Source: a virus
Length of the DNA: 52,072 nucleotides
Strand: one strand, 5' to 3'
IMG/VR virus record: IMGVR_UViG_3300013947_000055
Location: 1-52,072 of that record
Of the stretch, positions 768 to 13,882 are shown one piece after another (the stretch's first letter is position 1; each line of letters opens with the position of its first letter). The position numbers and the translations under genes are program-made. Below the pieces are notes generated by a model, which did no database searches, was not told where the DNA came from, and saw only the letters and a list, made by a program, of their open reading frames with translations.

Positions 768-1459
768 TGTCTTACTACTACCATCCGGACAGCGTCCGCT
801 ACATTAACAAGCGTATGCGCAGCATTACCAACCTGATCCTCATCATTACTGCTGGCCTGTTGGGTTTTATCGTCGGCTGCTACATAACAATCAGTGCACA
901 GTTCCAGACCCTTCAGCAGGAGGTGGAGGAAGTCCTTCAGACGTCCTCTGAAGTCCTTCAGGAGACACGGGAGCTTCAGCAGGAACTTATGTACCCAGCC
1001 GAGCAAACTGACGTCCTCGAGGACGAGATCGTCATCGAAGAGTCCCTCGTGTTCAACGACCCCGTGTATGACCAGCCCGCTACCATCCCCGACCTCGGCT
1101 GGGACTGGGACTACGTGCTGGGAGTGGTGGCTCAGGAGTGCTGGGGCGAACCTTATGACGGTCAGATGGCTGTGGCTCAGTGCATTCTGGACACGGCGCA
1201 GCTCCGTAACATGACCCCTGAAGAGGTTGTCAAGCTCCCCGGGAGATACGCTTCCCCTCTCGATTATGACAAGGCTAAGTCCGCTGTAGAGGATGCCTGT
1301 ATTGCCGTCTTCATCCTGGGAGAGAGGATCACCCCCGAACCTATCGAGTACTTTTACTCTACGGCTGGAGGCAAGTACTCTCACTGGCATGAGACTGACC
1401 TCACTCATGTGATGACCATCGGTAATCACAAGTTCTTTAAGACTAAGGAGGCTTTATGA
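767..1459 (+). CDS. Membrane-anchored SleB/CwlJ-like cell-wall hydrolase
   Basis: TAATG overlap with upstream gene; N-terminal TM helix ITNLILIITAGLLGFIVGCYITI; acidic coiled-coil linker; GVVAQECWGEPYDGQMAVAQCILDT resembles the Hydrolase_2 (SleB) core. Confidence 0.5.
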   Translation: MSYYYHPDSVRYINKRMRSITNLILIITAGLLGFIVGCYITISAQFQTLQQEVEEVLQTSSEVLQETRELQQELMYPAEQTDVLEDEIVIEESLVFNDPVYDQPATIPDLGWDWDYVLGVVAQECWGEPYDGQMAVAQCILDTAQLRNMTPEEVVKLPGRYASPLDYDKAKSAVEDACIAVFILGERITPEPIEYFYSTAGGKYSHWHETDLTHVMTIGNHKFFKTKEAL

Positions 1460-2466
1460 AGACCAAGCCGAACGATACCCCCTATTGTGGCGTAAACCAG
1501 TTCAAGATCCACGGTGCTCATCCCAAAGTCAACAACACCAACCTGAGAATCCTGTACAACTACATTCAGCGCCGCTATCAGGTTCACCTTCGTAAGGACG
1601 TGCTCAAGTTATCTGCACCATGGACGTCCGATACCATCCTTGCAGAGTATAGGTTCACCAACGTCCGGCGTGAGCACGACAGAGAGACCAGATGGCTTAT
1701 TGAGCACATCACCTCCAACAGAAAGCTGTCCTACGTAGACAAGATCTACAACTGTGTCCTATTCCGGCTGTATAACAAGCACCAGACTGCAGAACTACTT
1801 GGCTTACCTATCAAGTTCTCTGACGGCAACTTCGACCCTGAGAATTATGATGGTGTCTGGCAGGATGCCTTGGACGAGGATCCCAAACGAGTCTTCTTTA
1901 CGGGCGCATTCATGACCTCTGGTATGAAGCGCGTTCTCAGTCAGTACGTGCCAGAGGATCTGGGCGGGGACATTGCAGAAATGCGTCCCCTCTGGTTTAT
2001 GAAGTACCTTACCGAGCGCAACTTTGCGGGTATGTTGTCCTTCTGTGCTGATCAGAGCGAGGCCTATGAGCAGATCGCCGCTTACAATGGTATCGGCCGA
2101 TTCCTGGCCTACCAGATCTTTGTGGACTTTACCTACATAGAGGACTTCCCATACTCGGAGAATGAGTTCACGGTAGCCGGTATTGGCTGCAAGCGTGGTA
2201 TCAAGTATCTGTTTACCGATAGGGATCACCTGAATTACGAGGAGTGCCTGTTCTGGCTGCGAGACAACCTCGAAGACCTGTTTGCTAAACACCTTGGCAA
2301 GGACTTTGACCCTAAGACCCTCTTCTGGGATCTCCCTGAGGAAGACCGTTACATGAACGTCATGAGTCTGGAGAACTGTATGTGTGAGCTGTCCAAGTAC
2401 CTCAAGCTGATGCACGGTACAGGGCGTCCCCGTAAAAAGTACGTTCCCAGCGAGGAGGATTTATGA
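1456..2466 (+). CDS. aGPT-Pplase-like DNA base hypermodification protein (alpha-glutamyl/putrescinyl thymine pyrophosphorylase family)
   Basis: ATGA overlap with upstream gene; APWTSDTILAEYRFTNVRREHDRETRW matches my recollection of the family N-terminal signature (PWT-D-IL-YRF-NV-RE-DR-T). Confidence 0.5.
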   Translation: MKTKPNDTPYCGVNQFKIHGAHPKVNNTNLRILYNYIQRRYQVHLRKDVLKLSAPWTSDTILAEYRFTNVRREHDRETRWLIEHITSNRKLSYVDKIYNCVLFRLYNKHQTAELLGLPIKFSDGNFDPENYDGVWQDALDEDPKRVFFTGAFMTSGMKRVLSQYVPEDLGGDIAEMRPLWFMKYLTERNFAGMLSFCADQSEAYEQIAAYNGIGRFLAYQIFVDFTYIEDFPYSENEFTVAGIGCKRGIKYLFTDRDHLNYEECLFWLRDNLEDLFAKHLGKDFDPKTLFWDLPEEDRYMNVMSLENCMCELSKYLKLMHGTGRPRKKYVPSEEDL

Positions 2467-3275
2467 TCCCTGTATTTGTACCATCTTACCGGCGTCCTGA
2501 CGCCAAGTTCCTGCGGCGCAGCATGAACCAGAAGTTCCCGCTCTATGTCTTTGTCCGCAAGGAGGAGAAGGAAGCCTACTCCTGGATCAAAGCCAGACCC
2601 AACACCACCCTCGTCCTCATATCCAACGTGTCCAACATAGGTGAGACTCGCAGGGTCATGTTCAACTATGCAGTACACAAGGGCTTCGACAAGATCATCA
2701 TGCTCGACGATGACGTTACCCGACTTGACCTCTCCATGGTTGACCCAAAGTCCGGGAAGGTCAAGGCCTCCGGCAATGTCATCGGTTATGTGGAGGATTG
2801 GCATAAGGTGCTGCTGTGTTGGGAGGCAATCTGGACTGACGAAGCTATGCTGGGTGCAAGTTACCGTCCCTTTAGCTGGTCTCTTACCGAGGATGAGATC
2901 CCTATCCTCCGCAGATCCCAGCTCCAACAGGCTGTGGGGATCAACGTCAAGGCCATCCACAAGGCCGGTCTGAATTACCAGAGTAACGACCTTGTAGGCA
3001 ATGAAGATCTCTTCCTTCAGTTGGAGTGTTACCAGAAGGGACTGGAATGTGTCAAAACTAATGCAATCCAGTATGACTGTCCGGCCATGGGCGCGGGAAC
3101 AGGCGGTTGCAATGCGTCCGAGCTCGGCTCTATTCAGCAGAAGCAGCACAAGAGAGTAGCTCAGTTCGTGTTGGCCTGTAAGGATCCTACCCTTATCAAG
3201 ATCGCTAAGACTCGGTCAGGTGTGGAATCCGTCAAGTTCAACTGGAAAGCAATCAAATTCATCATGGAGGACTAA
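2463..3275 (+). CDS. GT-A-fold glycosyltransferase-like protein (TET/JBP-associated glycosyltransferase-like)
   Basis: ATGA overlap with upstream gene; N-terminal beta-strand IPVFVPSYRRP, DxD-type motif IIMLDDDV, later GNEDLF acidic motif. Confidence 0.45.
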   Translation: MIPVFVPSYRRPDAKFLRRSMNQKFPLYVFVRKEEKEAYSWIKARPNTTLVLISNVSNIGETRRVMFNYAVHKGFDKIIMLDDDVTRLDLSMVDPKSGKVKASGNVIGYVEDWHKVLLCWEAIWTDEAMLGASYRPFSWSLTEDEIPILRRSQLQQAVGINVKAIHKAGLNYQSNDLVGNEDLFLQLECYQKGLECVKTNAIQYDCPAMGAGTGGCNASELGSIQQKQHKRVAQFVLACKDPTLIKIAKTRSGVESVKFNWKAIKFIMED

Positions 3276-3278
3276 GAA

Positions 3279-3761
3279 ATGAATACTGACAAGCAATGGC
3301 TTGATATGGCATATAAGTACGCTATCGCTCACTCAGGTTGCCAGAAGGTCTCAGTAGGGTGTGTCATTACCAAGGGAGTCAACGGTACTGAAACTACTGC
3401 CAGTATGGGCGCAAACCGTACTCTTCCGCAGAACTGCAAGCTCATGGGATGCTGGCGTAAACAGATCCATGGGAATGACAGTAAAGCTCACCGTGGACCG
3501 GCTGATTGCATGGCTCTACACAGTGAGATCGACGCTTTAGCTATGGCAGCTCGTAACGGTGTGAGAGTGTTTGGCTCCACGGTCTATGTGACCCGCTACC
3601 CATGTGAGGCCTGTGCCCGAGCTCTCTGTGCTGCTGGAGTGGCTGAGGTCATTTATGGCGGTACAGCCGAGATCTCTATCATGACTGAACACATTTTCCG
3701 CAGCAACTGTGTAAAAGTACGTCACATCACCGACTGGATGGACGACAACTCTGACCGTTAA
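3279..3761 (+). CDS. dCMP/cytidine deaminase-family zinc enzyme
   Basis: RBS ggagg; HSEIDAL (H-x-E) and PCEACARAL (PCxxC) zinc/catalytic motifs; 160 aa. Confidence 0.8.
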   Translation: MNTDKQWLDMAYKYAIAHSGCQKVSVGCVITKGVNGTETTASMGANRTLPQNCKLMGCWRKQIHGNDSKAHRGPADCMALHSEIDALAMAARNGVRVFGSTVYVTRYPCEACARALCAAGVAEVIYGGTAEISIMTEHIFRSNCVKVRHITDWMDDNSDR

Positions 3762-3771
3762 GGAGACCTAT

Positions 3772-4350
3772 ATGAGTCACACAAAATACCTTACCAGCAC
3801 GCATCTCCAGATCCTAAAGAAAGCCCGTGACACCTACGGTGAGACCAACCAGATTCTGGTCTCCTGTGAAGAGCTGACTGAGCTTGCAGCCGTATGTGCC
3901 AAGTATCCCCGCTACACTGACCATGAGAAAGCTCACAACGACTTGTACGTCAAGGCACTGGATGAGGTCGCTGACGTGCTCATTGTCCTTGACCATGTGA
4001 TCAACATTTTTGACATCAAGCCCTATGACCTTCAGCAGCGCATCCATGGCAAGGTGAGCCGTCTTGAGCACTGGATGAACACATCTTCCAGCATGGAGCA
4101 GACCACCGTCGACAGAGAGGTTCCTGGACAGACTTCCCTTGAGGACTACAAGTGCCAGTCTTGTGTGTTTAAGAGCACTCCCGACTACATCTTCCCCTGT
4201 TCAGACTGCCACAACTTTGATCGCTACGTGAAAGCTACCCCGTGTGTAGGTTGTGCTCACAACGGTGACTATAAGCAGCTCAAAGAGGGCGGCGCTTGCG
4301 CTGAGTGCGTGAAAGATCCCGGCTGCAGATTCGTTAAAAAGGAGAACTAA
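3772..4350 (+). CDS. MazG-like all-alpha NTP pyrophosphohydrolase fused to a Cys-rich (multi-CxxC) C-terminal domain
   Basis: RBS aaggag; CEELTELAAV (EExxE) and LDEVADVLIVL (E..AD) motifs; C-terminus CQSC..CSDC..CVGC..CAEC. Confidence 0.6.
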   Translation: MSHTKYLTSTHLQILKKARDTYGETNQILVSCEELTELAAVCAKYPRYTDHEKAHNDLYVKALDEVADVLIVLDHVINIFDIKPYDLQQRIHGKVSRLEHWMNTSSSMEQTTVDREVPGQTSLEDYKCQSCVFKSTPDYIFPCSDCHNFDRYVKATPCVGCAHNGDYKQLKEGGACAECVKDPGCRFVKKEN

Positions 4351-4353
4351 TAC

Positions 4354-6282
4354 ATGAAACTGAGTGAGTTTGATGCCCTTGTAGGTCAAGATAGTTACGT
4401 CCGCTGCATGGGCAAGAAGCGCCTTGATACTGCCATCGTGAATCAGGCCGCTGCTGATGCTCACATTTTCTCTGGTGGACAGATCGGCTGGTGGGTCAGG
4501 ACAGGGTACATAATTGTTGACATCGATGAGGGTAAGGCTCAAGCCCTTAAGATGATCAAACGCCTTGGTCTGAAGACCCTCATGGCTAAGACCCCGAAAG
4601 GGCTGCACTTGTACTTCAAGTGTGACAAAGACTACCCTCAGAAGGTCGGCATGATTCTCCCATGTGGTCTTAAGTGTGACTTCCGTTGTGCTAACAAGGG
4701 CTACGTCATCTTACCGTTCGGGTCTGAGAACCGTTCCTTTAACAAGTGCAGAGAGATAGCAGAGCTGTCCCCTGAGTGGACTCCTATGGTCAATCGTAAG
4801 GAGACTCTCCTTGGTCTTAAGGATGGTGATGGGCGCAATGCTACCCTCTTTGCTCACCTCATGGCCTATAAGAACAGGGGAGCTTCTGACCAGCAGATTG
4901 ATGAGATGGCTCACGCTATCAATGACATCATCTTCAGTGAGCCTATGGCTGACTCTGAGCTTGAGAAGATCATTGAGAACACCAAACGCTATGAGGCAGC
5001 TCATGAATTTGATAACCCCTATCTTATCTACAACAGCAAAGGTGTTCCCAACAGTGTCAACTACCGTGCCATCTGTGACTACTTTGTCAACCGTGGTGAC
5101 ATCTTTGTTCTGGGTGGTGAGTGCTACCTTTACAGAGAAGGTATTTACGCCGAGGCGAGTAGTTATGTACGCAATGCCATCAAGGACATGATTGTCGTAG
5201 ACCACCTTATCACACAGACCAGAATTATGGAGGCCTACCGCCTTATCTGTGACGACGTGCGCTTACAGCGGCTTCCCAGTCAGCTCAACCAGGACAAGAA
5301 CCTTATCAACTTTCAGAACGGGGTATGGGACATCGAGGCTCACAAGCTGTTGCCTCATGACAGCAAGTACCTCCAGACCCTACAGATCCCTCATGAAGTC
5401 GGCGAGTATGTACCCTTTAAGCAGACTCGGCTCTATGACTTCTTTAAGAAAACTAAACTCCCTACCGAAGACATCAAGATGCTCCTCAAGTATATGGCAT
5501 ACTGCATGACTCTTGACTACGGTCTTAAGACGTTCATGATCCTCTGTGGTCAGTCAAATACAGGTAAGTCAGTCCTGATCCGCTTCTTTGAGACCCTTGT
5601 AGGAAGACAGAATGTGTCCTCTTTGAGTATGCATGAGCTCAATATGCGGTTCTATCCGGCGCAGCTCTATAACCGGCTGCTAAACTCCTGTGCAGATAAC
5701 TCGTCCTTACCTCTGTCTTCTATTGAAAACCTTAAGAAGATCACCGGCGGTGACCAGATCATGCACGAGCGCAAGGGTAAAGAGCCGTTCTTCTTCGTAC
5801 CGTTCTGTAAGCTTATCTTCTCCTTTAACCAGCTTCCGCTCCAGTTGGAGGAAAAGTCCAACGCATTCTATAAGCGCATGAGGATCCTGTTTATGAACAC
5901 GGAGCTGTTCTTGAACAATGACTACGTGAATGACCTGTGCAGCGAAGAGGGTGTGTCCGAGGTCATTCCTTACCTGTTGTCCCTGTTACCGGTCAAGGAG
6001 ATTCCTCGTACCAGCCTGAGCGACAAGTACGTGGAGTCCCTCCGTCAGGATAGTGATAGCATCCACGCATTCCTCGCCAAGCACTGTGAAATGGATAGTG
6101 ACCTTACCGTCGAGAAGAACGCTTTGTATGAGTCCTATTGCCGGTTCTGTATCGATACCGGTCGAGAGTCTCACAAGAAGCATGCTTTTATGCGCAACAT
6201 ACGTGCTCAGGGCTTTAGAGAGATCCGTGACAGCAAGACCAGAGATTACCTCTGGGCAGGACTTGGACTTAAAGGGCGGTGA
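4354..6282 (+). CDS. Bifunctional primase-polymerase / D5-P4-type SF3 helicase
   Basis: N-terminal prim-pol motifs (IIVDIDEG, KGLHLYF); Walker A CGQSNTGKS in the C-terminal half; 642 aa. Confidence 0.85.
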   Translation: MKLSEFDALVGQDSYVRCMGKKRLDTAIVNQAAADAHIFSGGQIGWWVRTGYIIVDIDEGKAQALKMIKRLGLKTLMAKTPKGLHLYFKCDKDYPQKVGMILPCGLKCDFRCANKGYVILPFGSENRSFNKCREIAELSPEWTPMVNRKETLLGLKDGDGRNATLFAHLMAYKNRGASDQQIDEMAHAINDIIFSEPMADSELEKIIENTKRYEAAHEFDNPYLIYNSKGVPNSVNYRAICDYFVNRGDIFVLGGECYLYREGIYAEASSYVRNAIKDMIVVDHLITQTRIMEAYRLICDDVRLQRLPSQLNQDKNLINFQNGVWDIEAHKLLPHDSKYLQTLQIPHEVGEYVPFKQTRLYDFFKKTKLPTEDIKMLLKYMAYCMTLDYGLKTFMILCGQSNTGKSVLIRFFETLVGRQNVSSLSMHELNMRFYPAQLYNRLLNSCADNSSLPLSSIENLKKITGGDQIMHERKGKEPFFFVPFCKLIFSFNQLPLQLEEKSNAFYKRMRILFMNTELFLNNDYVNDLCSEEGVSEVIPYLLSLLPVKEIPRTSLSDKYVESLRQDSDSIHAFLAKHCEMDSDLTVEKNALYESYCRFCIDTGRESHKKHAFMRNIRAQGFREIRDSKTRDYLWAGLGLKGR

Positions 6283-6288
6283 TCCCCT

Positions 6289-6501
6289 ATGGTATACAAA
6301 GAAGTCAATATGCAGCCTATCCCCGGCTTTGGTGGTAAGTACCTTATCTGCAAGGAAGGAATCGTGGTCAACAACAGGGGTCACCTGATCAAGGGTATTG
6401 AAACTATGCAGGGTACATCTGTGGAGCTTTACCACCTTGGTCAGAGGGAGATTATCCCCATCAAGACCCTGTTAGAAAGGACGTTCCATGACAATACATG
6501 A
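6289..6501 (+). CDS. NUMOD4-motif protein (probable homing-endonuclease remnant)
   Basis: IPGFGGKYLICKEGIVVNNRGHLIKG resembles the NUMOD4 motif at the N-termini of HNH/GIY-YIG homing endonucleases; only 70 aa, no nuclease domain. Confidence 0.45.
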   Translation: MVYKEVNMQPIPGFGGKYLICKEGIVVNNRGHLIKGIETMQGTSVELYHLGQREIIPIKTLLERTFHDNT

Positions 6502-6817
6502 TATGTATGAGCTCGTCATCCACCTGATGAAGAAGCAACTCAAGGAGAATCCTGGGAAAACCTACAAGAACAGGAACGGCGAGCGTGTGACCCTTGACGA
6601 GGTCATTCAGCAGTTTACCCTCCTGTCTAACTGGGTATACCCGTCCTTTACCACGGATGATGTGGCTAAGATAGTTCGCTGCAAGAAGTGCAAGCATTAC
6701 AAGAGGTACAAGAAGAAAGGCGTCATAAAGGCAAGGGTCATTCATGCCTGTGAGCTTGACAAGAAGCCCCGTGACCCTGAGTTCTTCTGTGGAGATGGCG
6801 ATGAGGTGATTCTATGA
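6488..6817 (+). CDS. Hypothetical Cys-rich protein
   Basis: Overlapping operon arrangement; RCKKCKHYKRY...HACEL...FFCGDGDE zinc-ribbon-like pattern shared with 50602..50850. Confidence 0.55.
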   Translation: MTIHDMYELVIHLMKKQLKENPGKTYKNRNGERVTLDEVIQQFTLLSNWVYPSFTTDDVAKIVRCKKCKHYKRYKKKGVIKARVIHACELDKKPRDPEFFCGDGDEVIL

Positions 6818-7173
6818 CATCTTTGAATGAAGACAAGGGCAAGACCATCAGCGAGCTGGAGCTCACACTGAGAGCTATAAAGCATCTGCTCCGGCAAAAG
6901 GCTAAGGAAAAGCCTGATGGTGGCCTTGTGATGGCAAAAGGCAAAAAGAACGAGATCCGGCTGTCATGGTCTGACATGGTCGACGTAGTTGACAGTCTTG
7001 AGTCAAAGCTCGGTATGGAGGGCTGCTTCAGTCAGGGTATTTGCAAGACTTGTAAGAGCTTCAATACTCGAGTAACTGCTGGAGGCTTCTGGGGACAGTG
7101 TGGTACAGTTATGCACCATGAGTATGACTCCTGTCCCAGACATTCTAAGAAGGGAGGCGGATTTGGCCTATGA
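6814..7173 (+). CDS. Hypothetical Cys-rich protein
   Basis: ATGA overlap with upstream ORF; ICKTCKSFN...GQCG...DSCPRH pattern. Confidence 0.55.
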   Translation: MTSLNEDKGKTISELELTLRAIKHLLRQKAKEKPDGGLVMAKGKKNEIRLSWSDMVDVVDSLESKLGMEGCFSQGICKTCKSFNTRVTAGGFWGQCGTVMHHEYDSCPRHSKKGGGFGL

Positions 7174-7580
7174 ACAGACGAGAGCGCAGAGCACTGGAGC
7201 GTCAGGGTAAGCTCCCAAAAGCTGAGCCTGTGTACAGCATGAAGCCCTCTGATATGAAGAAGTCTATGCTGTCTGGCATTGCCAAGACTGCTCTCAGAGA
7301 GGAGATCAATAAGCAGTGCCTTGAGGCAAGCAAGGGTCTGACCCTTGATATGGACGCTATGTACCTGTGGGCACTACACGTCCGGCACGGCTGGGGAGCT
7401 AAACGCCTATACCAGTTTTACAGGGATGTCTTTGAGGAGCACAAGACCATGCGGGAGTTCTACGAGATGGAGGATACCTACCCTGAGCGACAGAAACTCA
7501 AGGACATAGGTGTGGATCTGGAAGTCTGGTACGACGAGCTCTTTAATCCTGACGGGACATACAAGGAGGAAGAAGCATGA
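7170..7580 (+). CDS. Hypothetical protein
   Basis: ATGA overlap at both ends, codon usage like neighbours; no motif recognised. Confidence 0.55.
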   Translation: MNRRERRALERQGKLPKAEPVYSMKPSDMKKSMLSGIAKTALREEINKQCLEASKGLTLDMDAMYLWALHVRHGWGAKRLYQFYRDVFEEHKTMREFYEMEDTYPERQKLKDIGVDLEVWYDELFNPDGTYKEEEA

Positions 7581-7960
7581 ACAGAGTACCAGAAACTGCA
7601 AACACCTATGGTGTCTGTTGGTACTGTGGGAATACTGAAGGTCCGTTTGAGGTAGATCATGTATTCCCAAAGAGTTTAAGAAAAGACAATAGAAGGACTA
7701 ATCTGGTATGTTCCTGTAGAAAATGTAACAGAGAAAAGGGAGATAAAGCTCTGAGCTTTTTAGACCTGGAAGGAGAACCAGGATGGAGAGATCCCGATGT
7801 TATTGAGCAAGTTATAGATACCTATGCTCGTTTCTGTAGTGCTTTTGAGGAGGCACTTCCAGAAAAGTATGCTTCCTGGATCAAAAATCCCTTTGAGTCT
7901 TCTCATGTAAAATCTTTTAAGGAGGAACTTTCTCATGAGCTACCAGTTTGCCACGATTGA
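7577..7960 (+). CDS. Free-standing HNH endonuclease
   Basis: CWYCGNTEGPFEVDHVFPKS...NLVCSCRKCNREKGDK = classic HNH (CxxC...DH...N...CxxCN). Confidence 0.85.
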   Translation: MNRVPETANTYGVCWYCGNTEGPFEVDHVFPKSLRKDNRRTNLVCSCRKCNREKGDKALSFLDLEGEPGWRDPDVIEQVIDTYARFCSAFEEALPEKYASWIKNPFESSHVKSFKEELSHELPVCHD

Positions 7961-10001
7961 CATTGAAACTACTGGTCTTAACCGGTACAAAGACCGTATT
8001 ACATGGATTGGCGTCGGGCTTGCCAAAACTGTTGATGATGACCTGTCTAAGATTCTCATCTACGATGGCTCCAGCGAGGCTGATATGCGCAAGTTCCGTA
8101 ACGTCATGAAGCACGTCCGGGAAGCCAAGGCCAAGACTGTGTTCCAGAACGGTAAATTCGACACCCTCTTCATCGAGCACCATCTCGGTCTCAAGATCCC
8201 CATCCATGAAGACACGATGCTGATGGGTACAGCGTACGATCTTGTCGCTGAGCACGGTCTTAAAGCCATGGCTAAATCCTACCTTGGTGTACCTGACTGG
8301 GACATCAAGAAGAAGGACAAGCTCAGCGGTGATAAGGATACCATTGTTCCCTACCTGAAGTGTGACGTCAAGTACACATGGCAGCTCTATCAGTACCTGT
8401 GCTGCAACATGACCTCCCGACAGATGAAGCTCTACCGGGAGCTGCTCAGACCCGCTTATAGAGCATACAGAGACATTGAGCGCAATGGCCTCTACATTGA
8501 CCTTGATGCCTTACGGTCTGTACGCAAGAAGTACAATACTCAGGAGAAGAAGCTGCTTGCAGAGCTCAACAAGCACGCAAAGATCAACTGGAATAGCTCT
8601 GCACAGGTGGCAAAAGTGTTCTACGAACAGGAGAAAATGCCCATCATCAACTGGACAGCCAAGGGAGCTCCATCCATTGCTGCTGACGTTCTTAAGGAAC
8701 TCTCCATGCAGGGATATGAGACCCCGAAACTGCTGCTTGAGTACAAAGACGCTGCTACTCGTAACAAAATGTTCCTCAATCGTTGGGAGGACGACTGCTA
8801 TGAGAGCCGCATCCACCCGAGCTTCAATCTTACCAACGTGGTCTCAGGCAGAACAAGCTGTCTTACTGGGGATACTCCAGTGATGATTCCAGGGGGGTAT
8901 AAGCCCATTAAAGACATCAAAGTTGGAGACCTTGTGTATGGGTTTGACGAGAACCTAAAACCAAGACTATGCAAGGTCTCTTTTAGTGGGTGTACAGGAG
9001 TACGAGATGATGTGTACAGAGTTTGGTATAAGTCTCAAGGGACTCATGAGCTGAAGTACATAGACGCTACTTCTGATCATCTTGTACGGCTTACCTCTGG
9101 AGACTACCGAAGAGTTGATCAGTTGCATTGTAAAAAGAGAGATAGAGACCATGTACTTGCAATAGAACGTGGGTTCAAAGGAAGCAGAGAAAATCCACGT
9201 GGATATAGGATTTATCCAACAGGATGTGACACAGAGTTAGAGCATGTCTTTATCTTTAAGGAGCTACATGGGTACACTCCAGAGCATGTGCACCACAAAG
9301 ATGAAAATCCTCTGAATGATGAACCTGAGAATCTCATTGGACTCTCCGTAAGTGATCACGCAAGACTCCACATTCAGGAAAAGGGTGCTGACTGGCATAA
9401 GAAAGGAAATGCAGCTTCCTTAAAGACACGACAGAGTAAGGAATATAAAGAGTCCCTACATAGCTCAATTATGGAGTCCCGTTTATCCAAGAAAGACCTT
9501 GTAAAGGCTCTTAAAGAGGGTAACGGTCTGGTAGGAGCTGCTAAACTCCTTGGGAGAGACATCGGCTTTGTTGGTAATCGGATGAAGTACTATGGAGTAA
9601 CCTATGATGGTCGTTCTCATCGTAAAAAGAATAACCACACCATTTGGAAAGTAGAAAAACTTCCAGGAAAGTATGGAGTGTATGACATTTCTGTACCGGA
9701 AACTGAATGCTTTATTGCTAATGGAATCTGTGTCCATAACTGTAACAATCCCAACCTCCAGCAAGTACCCAGAACCAAGGACATCCGAGGTCTGTTTGCG
9801 GGCGCTCCAGGCATGATCCTCTTCGAGGCGGACTACTCTCAGTTGGAGCTACGCATTGCTGCTCACTACGCCAACGAGAAGACCATGCTGGACATTTACC
9901 GTAACAATGGTGATATTCATACTGAGACAGCCAAACTCTTTACCAACGGTCGCGCTCCTACTAAGGAGGAGAGAGGGAAAGCCAAGGCCGTGAATTTCGG
10001 T
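7935..10001 (+). CDS. DNA polymerase I (family A), exon 1, including an in-frame intein (8859..9740)
   Basis: RBS aaggagg; Exo I ATIDIETTG, Exo II NGKFDTLF, Exo III YLKCDVKY; motif A ILFEADYSQLELRIAAH; ends KAKAVNFG (first half of motif B). The TAA at 10002..10004 is intron sequence. Confidence 0.9.
8859..9740 (+). mobile_element. Intein (294 codons) with HNH homing-endonuclease domain, inserted in SGRTS|CNNPNLQQVP
   Basis: Starts CLTGDTPV (block A), TSDH (block B), VYDISVPETECFIANG (block F), ends GICVHN followed by +1 Cys; internal HVHHKDENPLNDEPENLIGLSVSDHARLH. Confidence 0.85.
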
Positions 10002-10633
10002 TAACCTACAAAGTAAGGCCGAATTAAAATCCCCTCAAAACGGTTGACCCTAAACGGAAACATATGGGAATCCCGTGCCTGTGTAAAAGCAGTGTGTAAC
10101 GACTTATCATGAATCGCTATCCTATGGATAAATCAATCGAATTCATGTATACGGGGGACAACGAAATCTGTGTAAGAAAGGAGGTATCTTGTAATGGCTT
10201 ATGCAAAAGTAACCTGTACAATCTGTGGTAAACAGTTCCAGCAAAAGAGCTGGAATCAGCATTTATGCTCTGATAAGTGTAGAACTGAGTTCTACGCGAG
10301 AAAAGGGCTTACTCGTATCTATGAGAATGGTAAATACGTAAAACATGGGTATGATCAAAAAGGAGAAAAGAATAACGCTTGGAAATATGGTTGTGCTTAT
10401 CGTCATCTTATTTCTATGGAACACTGTGAATGGTGTGGATCTACTAAGAACTTACTGGTACACCATAAGGATGGAGATCATAAACATAATGAAGTAAGCA
10501 ATCTGGTATGTCTTTGTAAAAGATGTCATCAGCAGTACCATTGCAAGAGAGATTCTCTCGGGAGATACACTACACATCGTTGAAGGTATAGTCTAGACCC
10601 CTAATAAATATCGGGAAACCGAGGGTATTATCG
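10002..10633 (+). mobile_element. Group I intron (632 nt) splitting polymerase motif B (NFG|FLYGM)
   Basis: Exon 1 ends in T (10001) that can form a U-G pair within P1: exon ttcggt (9996..10001) with intron gccgaa (10018..10023). Intron ends in G (10633). GAAA-tetraloop hairpin tcgg-gaaa-ccga 10611..10622. Joining 10001 to 10634 restores the frame and KAVNFGFLYGM. Confidence 0.75.
10194..10583 (+). CDS. Intron-encoded HNH homing endonuclease
   Basis: Own RBS aaaggagg; CTICGK...CSDKC zinc finger; LLVHHKDGDHKHNEVSNLVCLCKRCHQQYH HNH motif. Confidence 0.85.
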   Translation: MAYAKVTCTICGKQFQQKSWNQHLCSDKCRTEFYARKGLTRIYENGKYVKHGYDQKGEKNNAWKYGCAYRHLISMEHCEWCGSTKNLLVHHKDGDHKHNEVSNLVCLCKRCHQQYHCKRDSLGRYTTHR

Positions 10634-11155
10634 TTTCTATATGGTATGCAAGCAAAGAAGTTCGTCAAGTATGCTCTGGACAGCTATGGTCAAGTCTTTA
10701 CTCAGCGAGAGGCTGAGCACATCCGTGACCTGTTCTTTGCAAAGTATGCTCGGCTGTTACCTTGGCATAAGGAACAGGAAGATCTCTGTGAAATGCAGGG
10801 CGGCGTGGCGAATATGTTTGGTCGCTTCCGCAAGCTCCCTCTCATCTATTCCGCAAACAAGTGGGAACGGGCAAGTGCAGCTCGCCGTGCTATCAATACT
10901 CCAGTTCAGGGTTCAGGGTCTGATCTACTGATCTCTGCTGTGACCCAGATTAATAGGGAGCTCAAAGGTGTGGCATGGATCGGCGCTACTGTACACGACT
11001 CCATTATCGGTGAGTGCCGAGTTGAGGACAAGGACTTTGTGGATGAGACCATTCGCAGGGTCATGAAGCACCCTAAGGTCTTGGATGACTTTGGTGTTGA
11101 GCTCAGAGTGCCCTTGGATGTGGACATCGGATGGGGTCCTTGGGGAACTCACTAA
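10634..11155 (+). CDS. DNA polymerase I (family A), exon 2
   Basis: In-frame FLYGMQAKKF completes motif B; motif C ATVHDSIIGE; the ORF-track ATG at 10646 is internal to the exon. Confidence 0.8.
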   Translation, partial: FLYGMQAKKFVKYALDSYGQVFTQREAEHIRDLFFAKYARLLPWHKEQEDLCEMQGGVANMFGRFRKLPLIYSANKWERASAARRAINTPVQGSGSDLLISAVTQINRELKGVAWIGATVHDSIIGECRVEDKDFVDETIRRVMKHPKVLDDFGVELRVPLDVDIGWGPWGTH

Positions 11156-11243
11156 AATTTCGAAAACTGTAGAAAAACCAAGATTGGACAAGGGATTCTT
11201 GTGAATCTCAACAAAAATAATCCAAACTCCTGAAAAATAATGC

Positions 11244-11272
11244 TTGCTTTTTCCAGGAGGATAATATATACT
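11244..11272 (+). promoter_or_regulatory. Sigma-70-type promoter TTGCTT-N17-TATACT
   Basis: gcTTGCTTtttcc core also seen at 47364 (+) and 39830 (-); precedes the 11337 gene. Confidence 0.6.
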
Positions 11273-11336
11273 TCATGGTGTAAGCAGGAGCGGTGAACCG
11301 CTTCCACAATAAAATCTTTTTAAGGAGTGTAACAAA

Positions 11337-11792
11337 ATGCTGAATCTCAAGAAGGGCGATAAGGTCATCGTCAAAGGTTTCACTGGTATCAAGCTGTGTG
11401 TGTCTGAGGTCGCCAAGGCCGACAAGAAGACCATCACTGTTCTCAAGAAGAACGGCGACGAGATGATCTTCGACCGCAAGACCGCCAAGCAGATCAACGT
11501 CGAAGAGGGCAAGGAGAAGTTCGCCAACAGCGTCATGGAGGACGACGGCAGTTACGAGGGTCACGCCCCCGTCAGCAAGAAGAAGGGTAAGAAGGCCACC
11601 AAGACTGCTCCCAAGAAGGTCAAGCCCGAGCCGGAGGAAGTCGAAGACGAGGATGCGGACGAAGACGAGGAAGAGGAAGTCAAGCCCGCTAAGAAGTCCA
11701 AGAAGCCTGCGAAGAAGCCCGCCAAGAAGACCAAGAAGGTCGAAGATGACGACGATGACGACTTCGAGGAAGTCGACGAAGACGACGAGTAA
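11337..11792 (+). CDS. Hypothetical protein: small N-terminal beta-rich domain plus Lys-rich/acidic low-complexity tail
   Basis: RBS taaggag; the tail EEEEVKPAKKSKKPAKKPAKKTKKVEDDDDDD resembles the tail of 13900..14577. Confidence 0.7.
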   Translation: MLNLKKGDKVIVKGFTGIKLCVSEVAKADKKTITVLKKNGDEMIFDRKTAKQINVEEGKEKFANSVMEDDGSYEGHAPVSKKKGKKATKTAPKKVKPEPEEVEDEDADEDEEEEVKPAKKSKKPAKKPAKKTKKVEDDDDDDFEEVDEDDE

Positions 11793-11801
11793 ACCAGCGG
11801 C

Positions 11802-11817
11802 GGGGGCAACAGCCCCC
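11802..11817 (+). terminator. GC hairpin (gggggc-aaca-gccccc) 10 nt after the stop codon
   Basis: Perfect 6-bp G/C stem with tetraloop; no strong T-tract, so terminator function is tentative. Confidence 0.4.
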
Positions 11818-12192
11818 TCTGCCTAATGCAGCTCAGGACTAACGGGGAGCTTTGTAGTATCTCAGTTGGAAGAGCACCTGAACGGTGACAAGCCCGTGTA
11901 AATGCAGAGTCAGGTATGAACTGGTAGCGGATGATCAGTAAGAGCTACCCAAAGAGGAGCGCGTGAAGACGTGACGGTGTGTACACCCGAAGTAGACGCA
12001 GCGCGTAGGAAAAAGCCTCCAGATCAGTTGACACGTATCCAAGGCTGATCACACTGTCTTGTGTGTGGGTAACAAGACATCTCCTCACGTATATAAGCTG
12101 AAGCCGTAATCATCAGCTCGTTGGTTCCTTCTCCCTCCAACGCTCCAGTGCAATTCTGGTAGGCAGAATACAGGAAAGGAGCGTGAGACAAC

Positions 12193-13146
12193 ATATTCAT
12201 CAGTTACTCAAGGCAAGCTACCTATCTTAACTGCCCTTACCAGCACTGGCTACGTTACGTCAGACGACTTGAGAAGAGAGCACCAGAGAGACCCTTGTAT
12301 TTTGGCACTGACTTCCACAAGCTGTTAGAGTTACGCAACGACCCTGAAGCTCTTAAAGAGGCAAGACGGGACATTAAGGACACTTATTATGAGTTACCCC
12401 CTTCCCAGCAGAGCATCCTCGGTGAGGACTATGTTGAGGATCTGTTCACTATCTTTAAGGACTACAGAAAGGTCTACAAGGGTGTAAGACAGCCTCAGAT
12501 CACTGAGAAGCCCTTTGAGATCGAGGTCGGTAACTACAGAGGTGAGCCGATCGTCTTTGTAGGTAAGATCGATGAGCTGTATTTGCTCAAGCACCATGGA
12601 GTGAAGTCCATTACCGTTGGCGAGCACAAGACGTTCTCCAACAAGCCATCAATGGACATTCTCATCATGAATACACAAAAGTGCTTGTACGCAAAGGCAG
12701 TTCAATTTTTGAAGGGCATTTTACCTGATAAAGTAAAATGGGACTACATCAAGTCCACTCCGGCCGCTGAACCTATCTGGCTTGAAAAGACAGGACGGTT
12801 TAGTGAGGCTGTCTCCAGTAAGATCACCCCTATGAGCTGGAAACGAGCTTGCAAGCGCAGAGACATCATTGATCCAGAGATAATTCAAAAAGGAGAAAGA
12901 TACAGAGACAACATTCCAGAGTTCTTCTTCCAGGTGGAGCTCGACATTGACCCTAAGATGGTCGACATCATTTGGGATGGGTATCTGTTTACAGCGCAGC
13001 AAATCATTCGGTCTGGCAGAGACAACAAGACCCGGAATGTTACCAAGAACTGTTCTTGGTGTTCCTACCATGACATCTGCTACGCAGAAATGACCGGTGG
13101 AGACACTGAGTACGTCATAGCAAAAGACTTTGTAGAAAAGGAGTAA
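12193..13146 (+). CDS. PD-(D/E)XK Cas4/RecB-like exonuclease with 4-Cys cluster; start codon uncertain (no ATG/GTG/TTG upstream of the conserved N-terminus)
   Basis: Frame is open from 12187. Upstream of the ORF-track TTG (12295) it encodes ISYSRQATYLNCPYQHWLRYV...LYFGTDFHKLLE, including the N-terminal Cys. C-terminus has CSWCSYHDIC; central GKIDELY...GEHKT motif; RBS aaggag 12176..12181. Confidence 0.7.
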   Translation: MFISYSRQATYLNCPYQHWLRYVRRLEKRAPERPLYFGTDFHKLLELRNDPEALKEARRDIKDTYYELPPSQQSILGEDYVEDLFTIFKDYRKVYKGVRQPQITEKPFEIEVGNYRGEPIVFVGKIDELYLLKHHGVKSITVGEHKTFSNKPSMDILIMNTQKCLYAKAVQFLKGILPDKVKWDYIKSTPAAEPIWLEKTGRFSEAVSSKITPMSWKRACKRRDIIDPEIIQKGERYRDNIPEFFFQVELDIDPKMVDIIWDGYLFTAQQIIRSGRDNKTRNVTKNCSWCSYHDICYAEMTGGDTEYVIAKDFVEKE

Positions 13147-13150
13147 CCAC

Positions 13151-13882
13151 ATGGGAATTCTCGATTCTGCCGTCGATATCCAGGAGCTCGGTCAGCGTAA
13201 TTTCTGGGTACTGTATGGCAAATCCAACAGTGGTAAGACCTATGTTGCATCCACGTTCCCCAAGCCCCTTCTGTATATCCAGATCGGTGACGATGGCTCT
13301 AACACCATCGCTCGGGTTGAGGGTATTAAGGCTATCTCTATTGAGAACATTGAGCAGTTCAAGGCTCTCTGTGAGGAGCTGAAGAAGGACAAGAAGTACG
13401 CGACCATTGTCGTTGACACTTTCTCTATGGTCGTCAACGAATGGGTGCAGCAGAAGGTAACTACCAAGGGCAAGAAGATGACTCAGCAGCTTTGGGGCGA
13501 CCTGAAGACTGAGCAGGAAGAACTGATTAAAGCACTCCAGCGTCTTGCCAAGAAGCACATCGTTGTGGCAACTTGCCACGAGAGTATGGACACTATCGAG
13601 GGTATGGAGGATGAGATCACACCTGACATCCGTCCTTCGGTCTCTAAGGGTGCTCGTACCTATCTTGAGGGTATGGCGAACTATGGTATCCATACCACCA
13701 AGATCATCAAGGAAGTCACCAAGGGCAACGAGACCAAGGAAGTTGTCAAGTATGCAGCCGATATCGGTCCGAACCCCTACTACTGGACTAAGCTCCAAGT
13801 CGATCCCAGCATTAAAGTTCCTAAACGCATCATCAATCCGACCTATGACAAATTTATGGAAGTCATCGGTCAGGGTGAATAA
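13151..13882 (+). CDS. Sak4-like (AAA_24) RecA-fold ATPase / single-strand annealing-associated protein
   Basis: RBS aaggag; Walker A LYGKSNSGKT; Walker B IVVDTFS; sits between the Cas4-like nuclease and DUF669-like SSB, as in known phage recombination modules. Confidence 0.65.
   Translation: MGILDSAVDIQELGQRNFWVLYGKSNSGKTYVASTFPKPLLYIQIGDDGSNTIARVEGIKAISIENIEQFKALCEELKKDKKYATIVVDTFSMVVNEWVQQKVTTKGKKMTQQLWGDLKTEQEELIKALQRLAKKHIVVATCHESMDTIEGMEDEITPDIRPSVSKGARTYLEGMANYGIHTTKIIKEVTKGNETKEVVKYAADIGPNPYYWTKLQVDPSIKVPKRIINPTYDKFMEVIGQGE

Follow-up and report, generated by a model that had tools for sequence, protein, structure and literature searches.

A probable mobile group I intron with an HNH endonuclease gene in motif B of a phage family A DNA polymerase gene

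The interrupted polymerase gene

The virus record IMGVR_UViG_3300013947_000055 was analysed as a single stretch of 52,072 nt, hereafter the window, in which a family A DNA polymerase gene (polA) is interrupted within the conserved motif B by a 632-nt element that contains an HNH endonuclease open reading frame (ORF). All coordinates are positions in this window, and the element under study occupies 10002-10633 (Table 1). The frame opened at 7935 runs to ...ERGKAKAVNFG and then meets a TAA at 10002-10004, and FLYGMQAKKF resumes at 10634, as stated in a preliminary description made from the letters of the sequence. Joining 10001 to 10634 yields an uninterrupted polymerase reading without a gap, with a predicted ligated junction of ...AATTTCGGT joined to TTTCTATATGG, 632 nt shorter than the unspliced form. 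On the Pfam DNA_pol_A profile, exon 1 covers up to position 216 and exon 2 starts at position 218, the two pieces abutting almost exactly, and the in-frame removal restores a host protein that aligns to uninterrupted homologues without gaps. Among these, the annotated intron-less polymerase of Bajarodcaudo virus 5 (57% identity) reads KAKSVNFGYLYGMQSK and is gap-free across the junction.

When viral contigs were scanned with the spliced, intein-free polymerase protein, 21 loci of the same phage group were returned, 18 of which contain an uninterrupted 1704-nt polA reading ...KAKAVNFG-FLYGM.... The closest relative, L006 (L numbers denote the loci used for comparison), is 90-95% identical to the window at the nucleotide level over 5000-13464, and 91-95% identical in the exons, apart from three blocks present only in the window, one of which is the element itself. 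The empty allele of the L006 type reads GTGAACTTCGGT followed directly by TTTCTGTATGG, and the insertion boundary is uncertain by 1 nt, the T at 10002 versus that at 10634; we fixed it at 10002-10633 because of the rule that a U stands at position -1 and a G at the intron end. Positions 10002-10633 are thus a precise 632-nt insertion, with a G+C content of 39% compared with 50% for the window and genome.

RNA architecture of the element

At the coordinates listed in Table 1, 15 helices are fully paired, and the arrangement contains the landmarks of a group I intron: a U.G wobble at the 5' splice site within P1, a terminal G (omega-G) beside P7/P9.0, and a P3-P8 core with the P3/P7 pseudoknot and the J6/7 and J8/7 junctions. 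P2 is absent. P7.1 and P7.1a lie between P7 and P3', where subgroup IA2 has extra pairings (P7.1/P7.2), and the core is homologous to the introns of Staphylococcus phage Twort; a placement in IA2 is possible. The preliminary description had already pointed to the pairing of exon TTCGGT with intron GCCGAA, with the U-G at the splice site, to a final intron G, to a GAAA-tetraloop hairpin at 10611-10622 and to an HNH ORF at 10194-10583 with its own ribosome-binding site. All of these were upheld, as the P1 pairing comprises six pairs and is kept by compensatory change in the intron of L025, the covariation of P9.0 predicts the same G10633, the hairpin is present as TCGG-GAAA-CCGA, and the ORF is preceded by AAGGAGG and has a recognizable HNH family match (see below).

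Covariation was assessed in an alignment of the ORF-deleted introns of the window, L149, and L150 with the native intron of L025. Overall, 97.1% of the alignment cells in helices are paired and 17 of the 62 pairs are changed on both sides; deriving the structure from one sequence inflates the percentage paired, not the compensatory count. The compensated pairs are spread over P1, P3, P5, P6a, P7.1, P7.1a, P8, P9.0, and P9. Shuffled controls gave 4.7 +/- 1.7 such pairs, with none of 500 shuffles reaching 17, and sliding the pairing partners by 1-3 columns left 31-43% pairing and 1-6 compensated pairs.

Table 1. Coordinates of the polymerase gene, the intron element and its predicted RNA helices in the window
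Feature	Position	Strand	Remarks
Window-only block relative to L006, free-standing HNH gene	about 7581-7917		
polA exon 1	7935-10001	+	3'-5' exonuclease domain and N-terminal polymerase part; Pfam DNA_pol_A_exo1, DNA_pol_A to 216, Intein_splicing/HNH_3
Intein, in-frame in exon 1	8859-9740		294 aa (CLTGDT...VHN, then C), HNH_3 domain; site SGRTS/CNNPNLQQ; 42.5% G+C
Window-only block relative to L006, intein	8862-9740		
P1 5' strand	9996-10001	+	exon end UUCGGU (six bases), with U10001 at the 5' splice site; six pairs with 10018-10023, the last being U.G
P1	9996-10001 / 10018-10023		U.G at splice site
Group I intron (very probable)	10002-10633	+	632 nt; missing in L006 and 17 further relatives; present in L147-149, variant in L150-154
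Window-only block relative to L006, group I intron element	10002/3-10633		
Internal guide sequence (P1 3' strand)	10018-10023	+	GCCGAA; kept in L150; GCUGAA in AVP; GCCGAA in L155
5' core	10030-10106	+	P3 5' strand to P7 5' strand including J6/7; model R1 match 10027-10106, helix check, covariation
P3	10030-35 / 10153-58	+	3' strand GGGGGA
P4	10040-43 / 10073-76		
P5	10048-50 / 10066-68		
P6	10077-78 / 10094-95		
P6a	10079-81 / 10090-92		
P7	10101-04 / 10590-93		3' strand AGUC
P7.1	10108-16 / 10138-47	+	between P7 and P3'; five compensatory pairs
P7.1a inner hairpin	10119-22 / 10126-29	+	two compensatory pairs
P8	10160-64 and 10169-74 / 10571-76 and 10577-81	+	AACGA, 4-nt bulge, UGUGUA; loop contains the ORF
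Shine-Dalgarno AAGGAGG	10178-10184	+	9 nt ahead of ATG 10194
HNH endonuclease ORF	10194-10583	+	129 aa, in P8 loop; last codons and stop overlap P8 3' strand and J8/7
J8/7 GAAGGUAU	10582-89	+	aligned to Rfam consensus UgAAGAUAUAGUCu; within block 90-98% identical to other phage introns
P9.0	10596-97 / 10631-32	+	family-wide covariation
P9	10598-600 / 10623-25 and 10611-14 / 10619-22	+	GAAA loop; hairpin TCGG-GAAA-CCGA at 10611-10622
Terminal G	10633	+	placed by P9.0 covariation rule
polA exon 2	10634-11155	+	motif B from FLYGM, motif C, stop codon; Pfam DNA_pol_A 218-377; gap-free versus uninterrupted homologue

Homology of the ribozyme to other phage introns

The 5' half of the intron, in which BLAST found nothing, was compared with other introns by a covariance model of the P3-P7 domain, R1, built from 14 ORF-less family introns with the window left out. 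The consensus fold of R1 comprises P4, P5, P5a, P6, and P6a, with 13 of 19 pairs compensatory. On both strands of the window, R1 gave a single match, at 10027-10106 and over the full model length, with 20 bits and a rough E-value of 0.0086. The model scored 41-57 bits on the three Twort orf142 introns, 36 bits on the polymerase intron of phage Grass, 25.6 bits on L150, and 22.5 bits on L147, and it had no match on the empty alleles L005 and L006. The intron of L025 is found neither by R1 nor by Rfam.

The 3' half has more evident relatives. Sequences 90-98% identical to its last 55 nt (10579-10633) occur in 236 phage records, chiefly from Herelleviridae of Listeria, Staphylococcus, Enterococcus, and Bacillus. 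In each of the four records examined, the match lies directly ahead of the downstream portion of a split gene (TerL in P100 and VL10, DNA polymerase in AVP and Grass). A 40-nt block within it, ATAGTCTANNCCCCTAATAAATATCGGGAAACCGAGGGTA, occurs once in the window, with 0 occurrences expected, and over 120 viral contigs contain this block as well. Its two variable bases pair with the two bases preceding a downstream G in 77 of 88 distinct sequences, forming ten different dinucleotide pairs (P9.0); in a permutation control, the mean was 33.8 and the maximum 48, and none of 2000 runs reached 77. It is this covariation rule that places the terminal G of the window intron at 10633.

P3 also varies in a concerted manner, with six complementary sequences at one position across the sub-lineage of the P100/AVP type: UCCCCU/GGGGGA, CUCUAC/GUAGAG, CUCUG/CAGAG, CCUUG/CAAGG, UUACC/GGUAA, and UUCCGU/AYGGAA. 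An automated P3 search over all family loci was noisy, and the P100/AVP-type sub-lineage alone was cleanly readable; in the 'GCUAACGG' sub-lineage, P3 could not be assigned with confidence.

Several further observations concern the wider family. In loci L027-L146, found on contigs of 5-300 kb, the 40-nt J8/7-P7-P9 block (10588-10627 in the window) is identical save for the two covarying bases, and these loci differ widely in the 5' half of the ribozyme, in host gene, and in ORF position. P9 and its internal loop CUAAUAAAUA are extremely conserved, possibly as a tertiary contact or a protein-binding site. Many family members (loci L035, L037, L051, L063, L069, L075, L076, L129, and L143) have a conserved GUGAAC-hairpin-GGUGU element upstream of P4 and a GAAG(C/U)GC motif before P8, and the window intron has neither.

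The HNH endonuclease ORF

The ORF in the P8 loop encodes a 129-aa protein with an N-terminal zinc-ribbon-like motif (CxxC...CxxxC) and a C-terminal HNH domain with CxxC...CxxC. The beta-beta-alpha-Me motif is visible in the translation as HHKDG...N...CxxCH, and the protein matches PHROG 1271 ('HNH endonuclease') at an E-value of 4e-12; Pfam HNH_2/HNH_3 matches are at E 0.003, under the curated cut-offs, and comparison with solved structures gave marginal matches to DotN (E 0.02) and I-HmuI (1u3e, E 0.16). A large protein collection contains five relatives in all, of which those at 95 and 75% identity are encoded within the same intron, at the same codon boundary, in an intein-less polA of the same phage group.

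In three family loci where the ORF also lies in P8 (L027, L049, and L110), the loop starts with a near-consensus sigma-70 promoter (TTGACT/TTGACA, 17 nt, TATAAT) before the ribosome-binding site of the ORF. The window intron has no such promoter, so that translation of its ORF presumably relies on the polA transcript or the excised intron. A promoter and terminator scan of 9800-10800 found nothing above chance.

Close copies and mobility

The intron is polymorphic in presence at one site and more conserved than its host gene. It is 96.4% identical between the window and L147, whose polA exons are 72-81% identical to those of the window, and the nearest genome, L006, is intron-less; the presence and absence of the intron is therefore discordant with the divergence of the host gene, and the high intron versus low exon identity indicates horizontal spread. 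Between the window and L150, identity is 89.9% in the core (10018-10176) and 93.7% in the 3' core, compared with 69.2% in the ORF and 37.5% in the P1 loop. The differences in the ORF are concentrated at third codon positions (30, 18, and 65 at the first, second, and third positions).

The nearest ribozyme core beyond the window's own intron copies is in L025 (IMGVR_UViG_3300013426_000050, about 4171-4377), an intron of about 207 nt that has no ORF and is a homolog of the window core, with long identical strings and with all helices kept via compensatory changes. It differs from the window intron in its site, which lies 10 nt further upstream and follows base 2 of the Val codon in KAKAV/NFG, and in its guide, GCCGCC, which pairs with exon GGCGGU (two compensatory pairs in P1 relative to the window). 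It also differs in that P8 is a 4-bp hairpin (one compensatory pair) without an ORF, P5 and P9 are of another kind, and P3 is UCCCUU/GAGGGA. L025 looks like a retargeting of the same intron to a neighbouring site. A viral scan for more close relatives with TAAATCAATCGAA...GGGACA returned L025's own contig plus three chance matches in coding sequence, and among 120 loci returned by a single metagenome scan, none had a 3' core.

The same boundary, NFG/(L/F)xYG, holds family introns in Aerococcus phage AVP, L091, L131, and L155. The last of these is an unrelated 92-kb phage (Logan SRR22387837 contig), whose intron at the same polA site has the guide GCCGAA and an HNH protein 42% identical to that of the window. 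In L155, polA is split into at least three coding pieces over 1364-4962, and a second intron core at 3863-3959 (47.7 bits with R1) has a Twort-like 3' end.

The last exon hexamer is TTCGGT in all intron-carrying alleles versus 4 of the 18 empty alleles, which fits either the P1 requirement or co-conversion. All three intron-carrying lineages (window, L147, and L150) open exon 2 (10634-10639) with the codons TTT CTA; none of the 18 empty alleles has CTA at that codon, the alternatives being CTG, TTA, or TTG. A co-conversion tract, target resistance to the endonuclease, and a splicing requirement are each possible origins of this pattern.

Interpretation and alternative explanations

We consider it very probable that 10002-10633 is a mobile group I intron of a Twort/Herelleviridae-type IA lineage, with an HNH homing-endonuclease gene in P8, which is inserted in motif B at KAKAVNFG/FLYGM and spliced between 10001 and 10634. 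The group I reading is supported because empty alleles exist, both ribozyme halves have homologs, the helices covary, and the frame is restored, and the same lines of evidence bear out the preliminary description in its intron class, its ORF, and its splice sites.

By this reading, the RNA would fold into P1-P9, with the guide GCCGAA pairing with the last six exon bases and presenting U10001 in a U.G wobble. Exogenous guanosine bound in P7 would attack the 5' splice site, after which G10633, positioned by P9.0, would take over the G site. The free 3'-OH of exon 1 would then attack the 3' splice site, ligating 10001 to 10634 in a continuous polymerase mRNA. The window intron is homologous to introns known to splice, and we infer its own catalytic self-splicing from the known group I pathway; the ORF product is likewise a putative nuclease with a presumed target. 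By analogy with I-HmuI, I-BasI, and I-PfoP3I, the enzyme would act on intron-less polA alleles during mixed infections, nicking or cutting them close to the motif B site, and repair copied from the intron-carrying allele would spread the intron (homing).

A number of results weigh against this reading. An Rfam group I scan, which the preliminary description had named as a check, gives no support by itself: RF00028 had no match on the whole window at the gathering threshold (50 bits), scored 12.8 bits (E 1.9) over the whole region under permissive settings, and on the isolated ribozyme halves found nothing in the 5' half and 9 bits in the 3' half. The R1 match is modest as well. The core is atypical, as P4 consists of four pairs followed by a U-C mismatch and P6 has no usual internal loop, and P10, which we do not claim, is weak, with three possible pairs (UUU with AAG 10015-17) that are not kept in L150. 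The minimum free energy fold of the intron without its ORF does not exceed shuffles in stability (z = -0.6), and it recovers P1, P7.1, P8, and P9 alone, missing P3-P6. In addition, the covariation rests on four distinct sequences, with the structure derived from one.

It is worth noting that RF00028 scores the ORF-less Twort introns at 64-101 bits, confirming those as group I. Since this control works, the Rfam miss reflects the split, atypical core of the window intron and not a general blindness of the model, which also misses introns with an ORF or expansions in the split Herelleviridae genes L001-L004. The threshold of RF00028 serves as an operational criterion and does not define the group I class, and the positive evidence comes from the family-specific model and the comparative data. 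Thermodynamic folding is uninformative for a pseudoknotted ribozyme.

The same results would also fit an intron that is real by origin but no longer self-splicing, being either in decay or dependent on a host or phage protein cofactor, with the polymerase made inefficiently or with help. The four-pair P4 with its mismatch, the merged P6/P6a, the weak P10, a family-model score of 20 compared with 41-57 bits for Twort, the silence of Rfam, and a fold without thermodynamic excess over shuffles are all what such an intron might display. However, no other family A polymerase was seen in the region, and this one is presumably essential. Across three lineages, the core is under tighter constraint than either ORF or exons and has changed in a compensatory manner, and the splice-site U.G, the terminal G, and P9.0 are intact. 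We therefore regard loss of self-splicing as improbable.

It is less probable still, with only a very small chance of being correct, that a free-standing HNH cassette has split polA into two genes whose products, one ending at 10001 and the other starting at 10646, assemble without RNA splicing. Public annotations of comparable loci do give two separate 'DNA polymerase' coding sequences, and an ATG is present at 10646. However, the split lies within the motif B helix, one residue past the conserved F, and the use of the ATG at 10646 would drop FLYG; this ATG has no usable, properly spaced Shine-Dalgarno sequence, the nearest candidate (GAGGG) being about 20 nt upstream. Two independent genes would also leave unaccounted for about 240 nt of non-coding flanks that are conserved, covary as helices, and have homologs among ribozymes with a group I annotation, as well as an exon hexamer constrained to match the guide sequence. 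Translational bypass or other recoding, or an intron of another class such as group II, has nothing specific in its favour, being raised solely for the exact frame restoration, and is extremely improbable given that the 632-nt gap far exceeds known translational bypassing, that there is neither a reverse-transcriptase ORF nor a match to group II domain V/VI in Rfam, and that all group I landmarks are present.

Comparison with known introns

The mobile group I intron proposed here resembles the Twort orf142 introns in having a homologous P3-P7 domain (P4, P5, P6, P6a, J6/7, and the P7 5' strand), and R1, built from neither, matches both. The ...AUAGUC... element of J8/7-P7 and the extra pairing between P7 and P3' (P7.1) are also common to them. 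The Twort record annotates the orf142 coding sequence as containing group I introns, which belong to subgroup IA2, and the crystal structure of the I2 ribozyme has been solved; Landthaler and Shub are said to have reported in 1999 that these introns self-splice. By contrast, the Twort introns contain no ORF, lie in a structural gene, and are recognized by Rfam, whereas the window intron has the HNH ORF in P8, no P2, shorter P4 and P6, and another P9 region.

The polymerase intron of Aerococcus phage vB_AviM_AVP (AVP, MH729379) lies at the identical codon boundary, ...AKAITFG/LIYGK, and its guide is GCUGAA. It has J1/3 UUAAAA, the P3-AAACGG arrangement, and the J8/7-P7-P9 block in common with the window intron, with P3 and P9.0 covarying between them, although its 231-aa endonuclease is encoded in P6a and not in P8. 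The same 40-nt 3' block is found in introns of Listeria phage P100 (TerL), Staphylococcus phage VL10 (TerL), and Bacillus phage Grass (polymerase). None of the four records (AVP, Grass, P100, and VL10) annotates the intron; the split genes are given as separate coding sequences or the intron is left unannotated. The hosts of these introns are low-G+C myoviruses of 130-150 kb, whereas the window group comprises phages of roughly 52 kb and 50% G+C known from metagenomes only.

By the established numbering of Pol I motif B, the window site is G763/L764 of E. coli Pol I. In the same numbering, the published intron sites in phage family A polymerases are 674 (SPO1, SP82, Bastille, and Pf-WMP3), 676 (phiL7), and 881 (PhiI and W31) (PMC3428280). 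The polymerase introns of the SPO1 type are group I introns (IA2) with an HNH nicking endonuclease gene in a conserved region of a phage family A polymerase gene, a layout that the window intron resembles. The preliminary description had cited SPO1 and its relatives as a precedent, and this is correct in that polymerase genes with HNH-containing introns are known, but the introns of SPO1, SP82, and Bastille are at site 674, not in motif B (PMC3428280), and the window intron does not belong with them: its site is 763/764, and the I-HmuI family is at best remotely similar, the window enzyme being far smaller (129 aa), with the zinc-ribbon-like N-terminus, and matching I-HmuI at E 0.16. In Pf-WMP3, as in the window, the opening UAA of the intron ends exon 1, but the ORFs of Pf-WMP3, PhiI, and W31 are in P6a (PMC3428280). 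More broadly, Bastillevirinae often have polymerase genes that are split by up to three group I introns (one to three); most of these are IA-like, in many a nuclease ORF interrupts the ribozyme, and phage 'IA2' is itself heterogeneous (PMC11878797). A literature search for an intron site in motif B found nothing specific. The window element is of a well-known kind of selfish element, in an insertion site and a phage group for which no published description was found, and its novelty is modest.

Taken together, the comparisons suggest a broader picture that we put forward tentatively, with less than even confidence that its parts hold jointly. Motif B, at NFG/[L/F]xYG, may form a homing hotspot of phage family A polymerases that is used repeatedly and was not described before, perhaps served by a new family of very small (129-176 aa) zinc-ribbon and HNH endonucleases. 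The pair of introns in the window and L025, with the same core 10 nt apart, the guide changed from GCCGAA to GCCGCC, and no ORF in the latter, may capture an event of retargeting, which would be consistent with movement to an ectopic site through reverse splicing, or with recombination that needs no endonuclease. The 39% G+C content and the Herelleviridae-type 3' block suggest that the intron came from low-G+C Gram-positive phages and entered an unrelated phage group with genomes of roughly 52 kb and 50% G+C.

Neighbouring mobile elements and implications

In addition to the intron, exon 1 of polA contains an in-frame intein (Table 1), which is missing from all 18 uninterrupted relatives and from the intron carriers L147-L154. 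The window is alone, among about 30 related alleles, in having an intein and an intron together in polA. The preliminary description had called this combination unusual, which holds insofar as it is uncommon and confined to the window within its group, but it is not new in kind, as crAss-like phages are dense in introns and inteins (PMC7886860). A free-standing ORF for a 127-aa HNH endonuclease, at 7577-7960, directly precedes polA, with a 26-nt overlap at the polA start; it is the third HNH-type mobile element within 3 kb, and the block of about 7581-7917 is missing in L006.

For annotation, polA at this locus should be treated as one gene, encoding 568 aa after RNA and protein splicing, and not as two polymerase fragments plus a stray nuclease. 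The small HNH enzyme, with its defined and highly conserved putative target, could interest engineers of nicking enzymes. Overall, the current understanding of group I introns is unchanged by this locus, which extends the list of intron sites in phage polymerases by motif B and is a compact natural case in which three HNH-based selfish elements lie within 3 kb of an essential gene, namely a free-standing HNH gene, an intein, and an intron, with near-identical empty alleles available for comparison.

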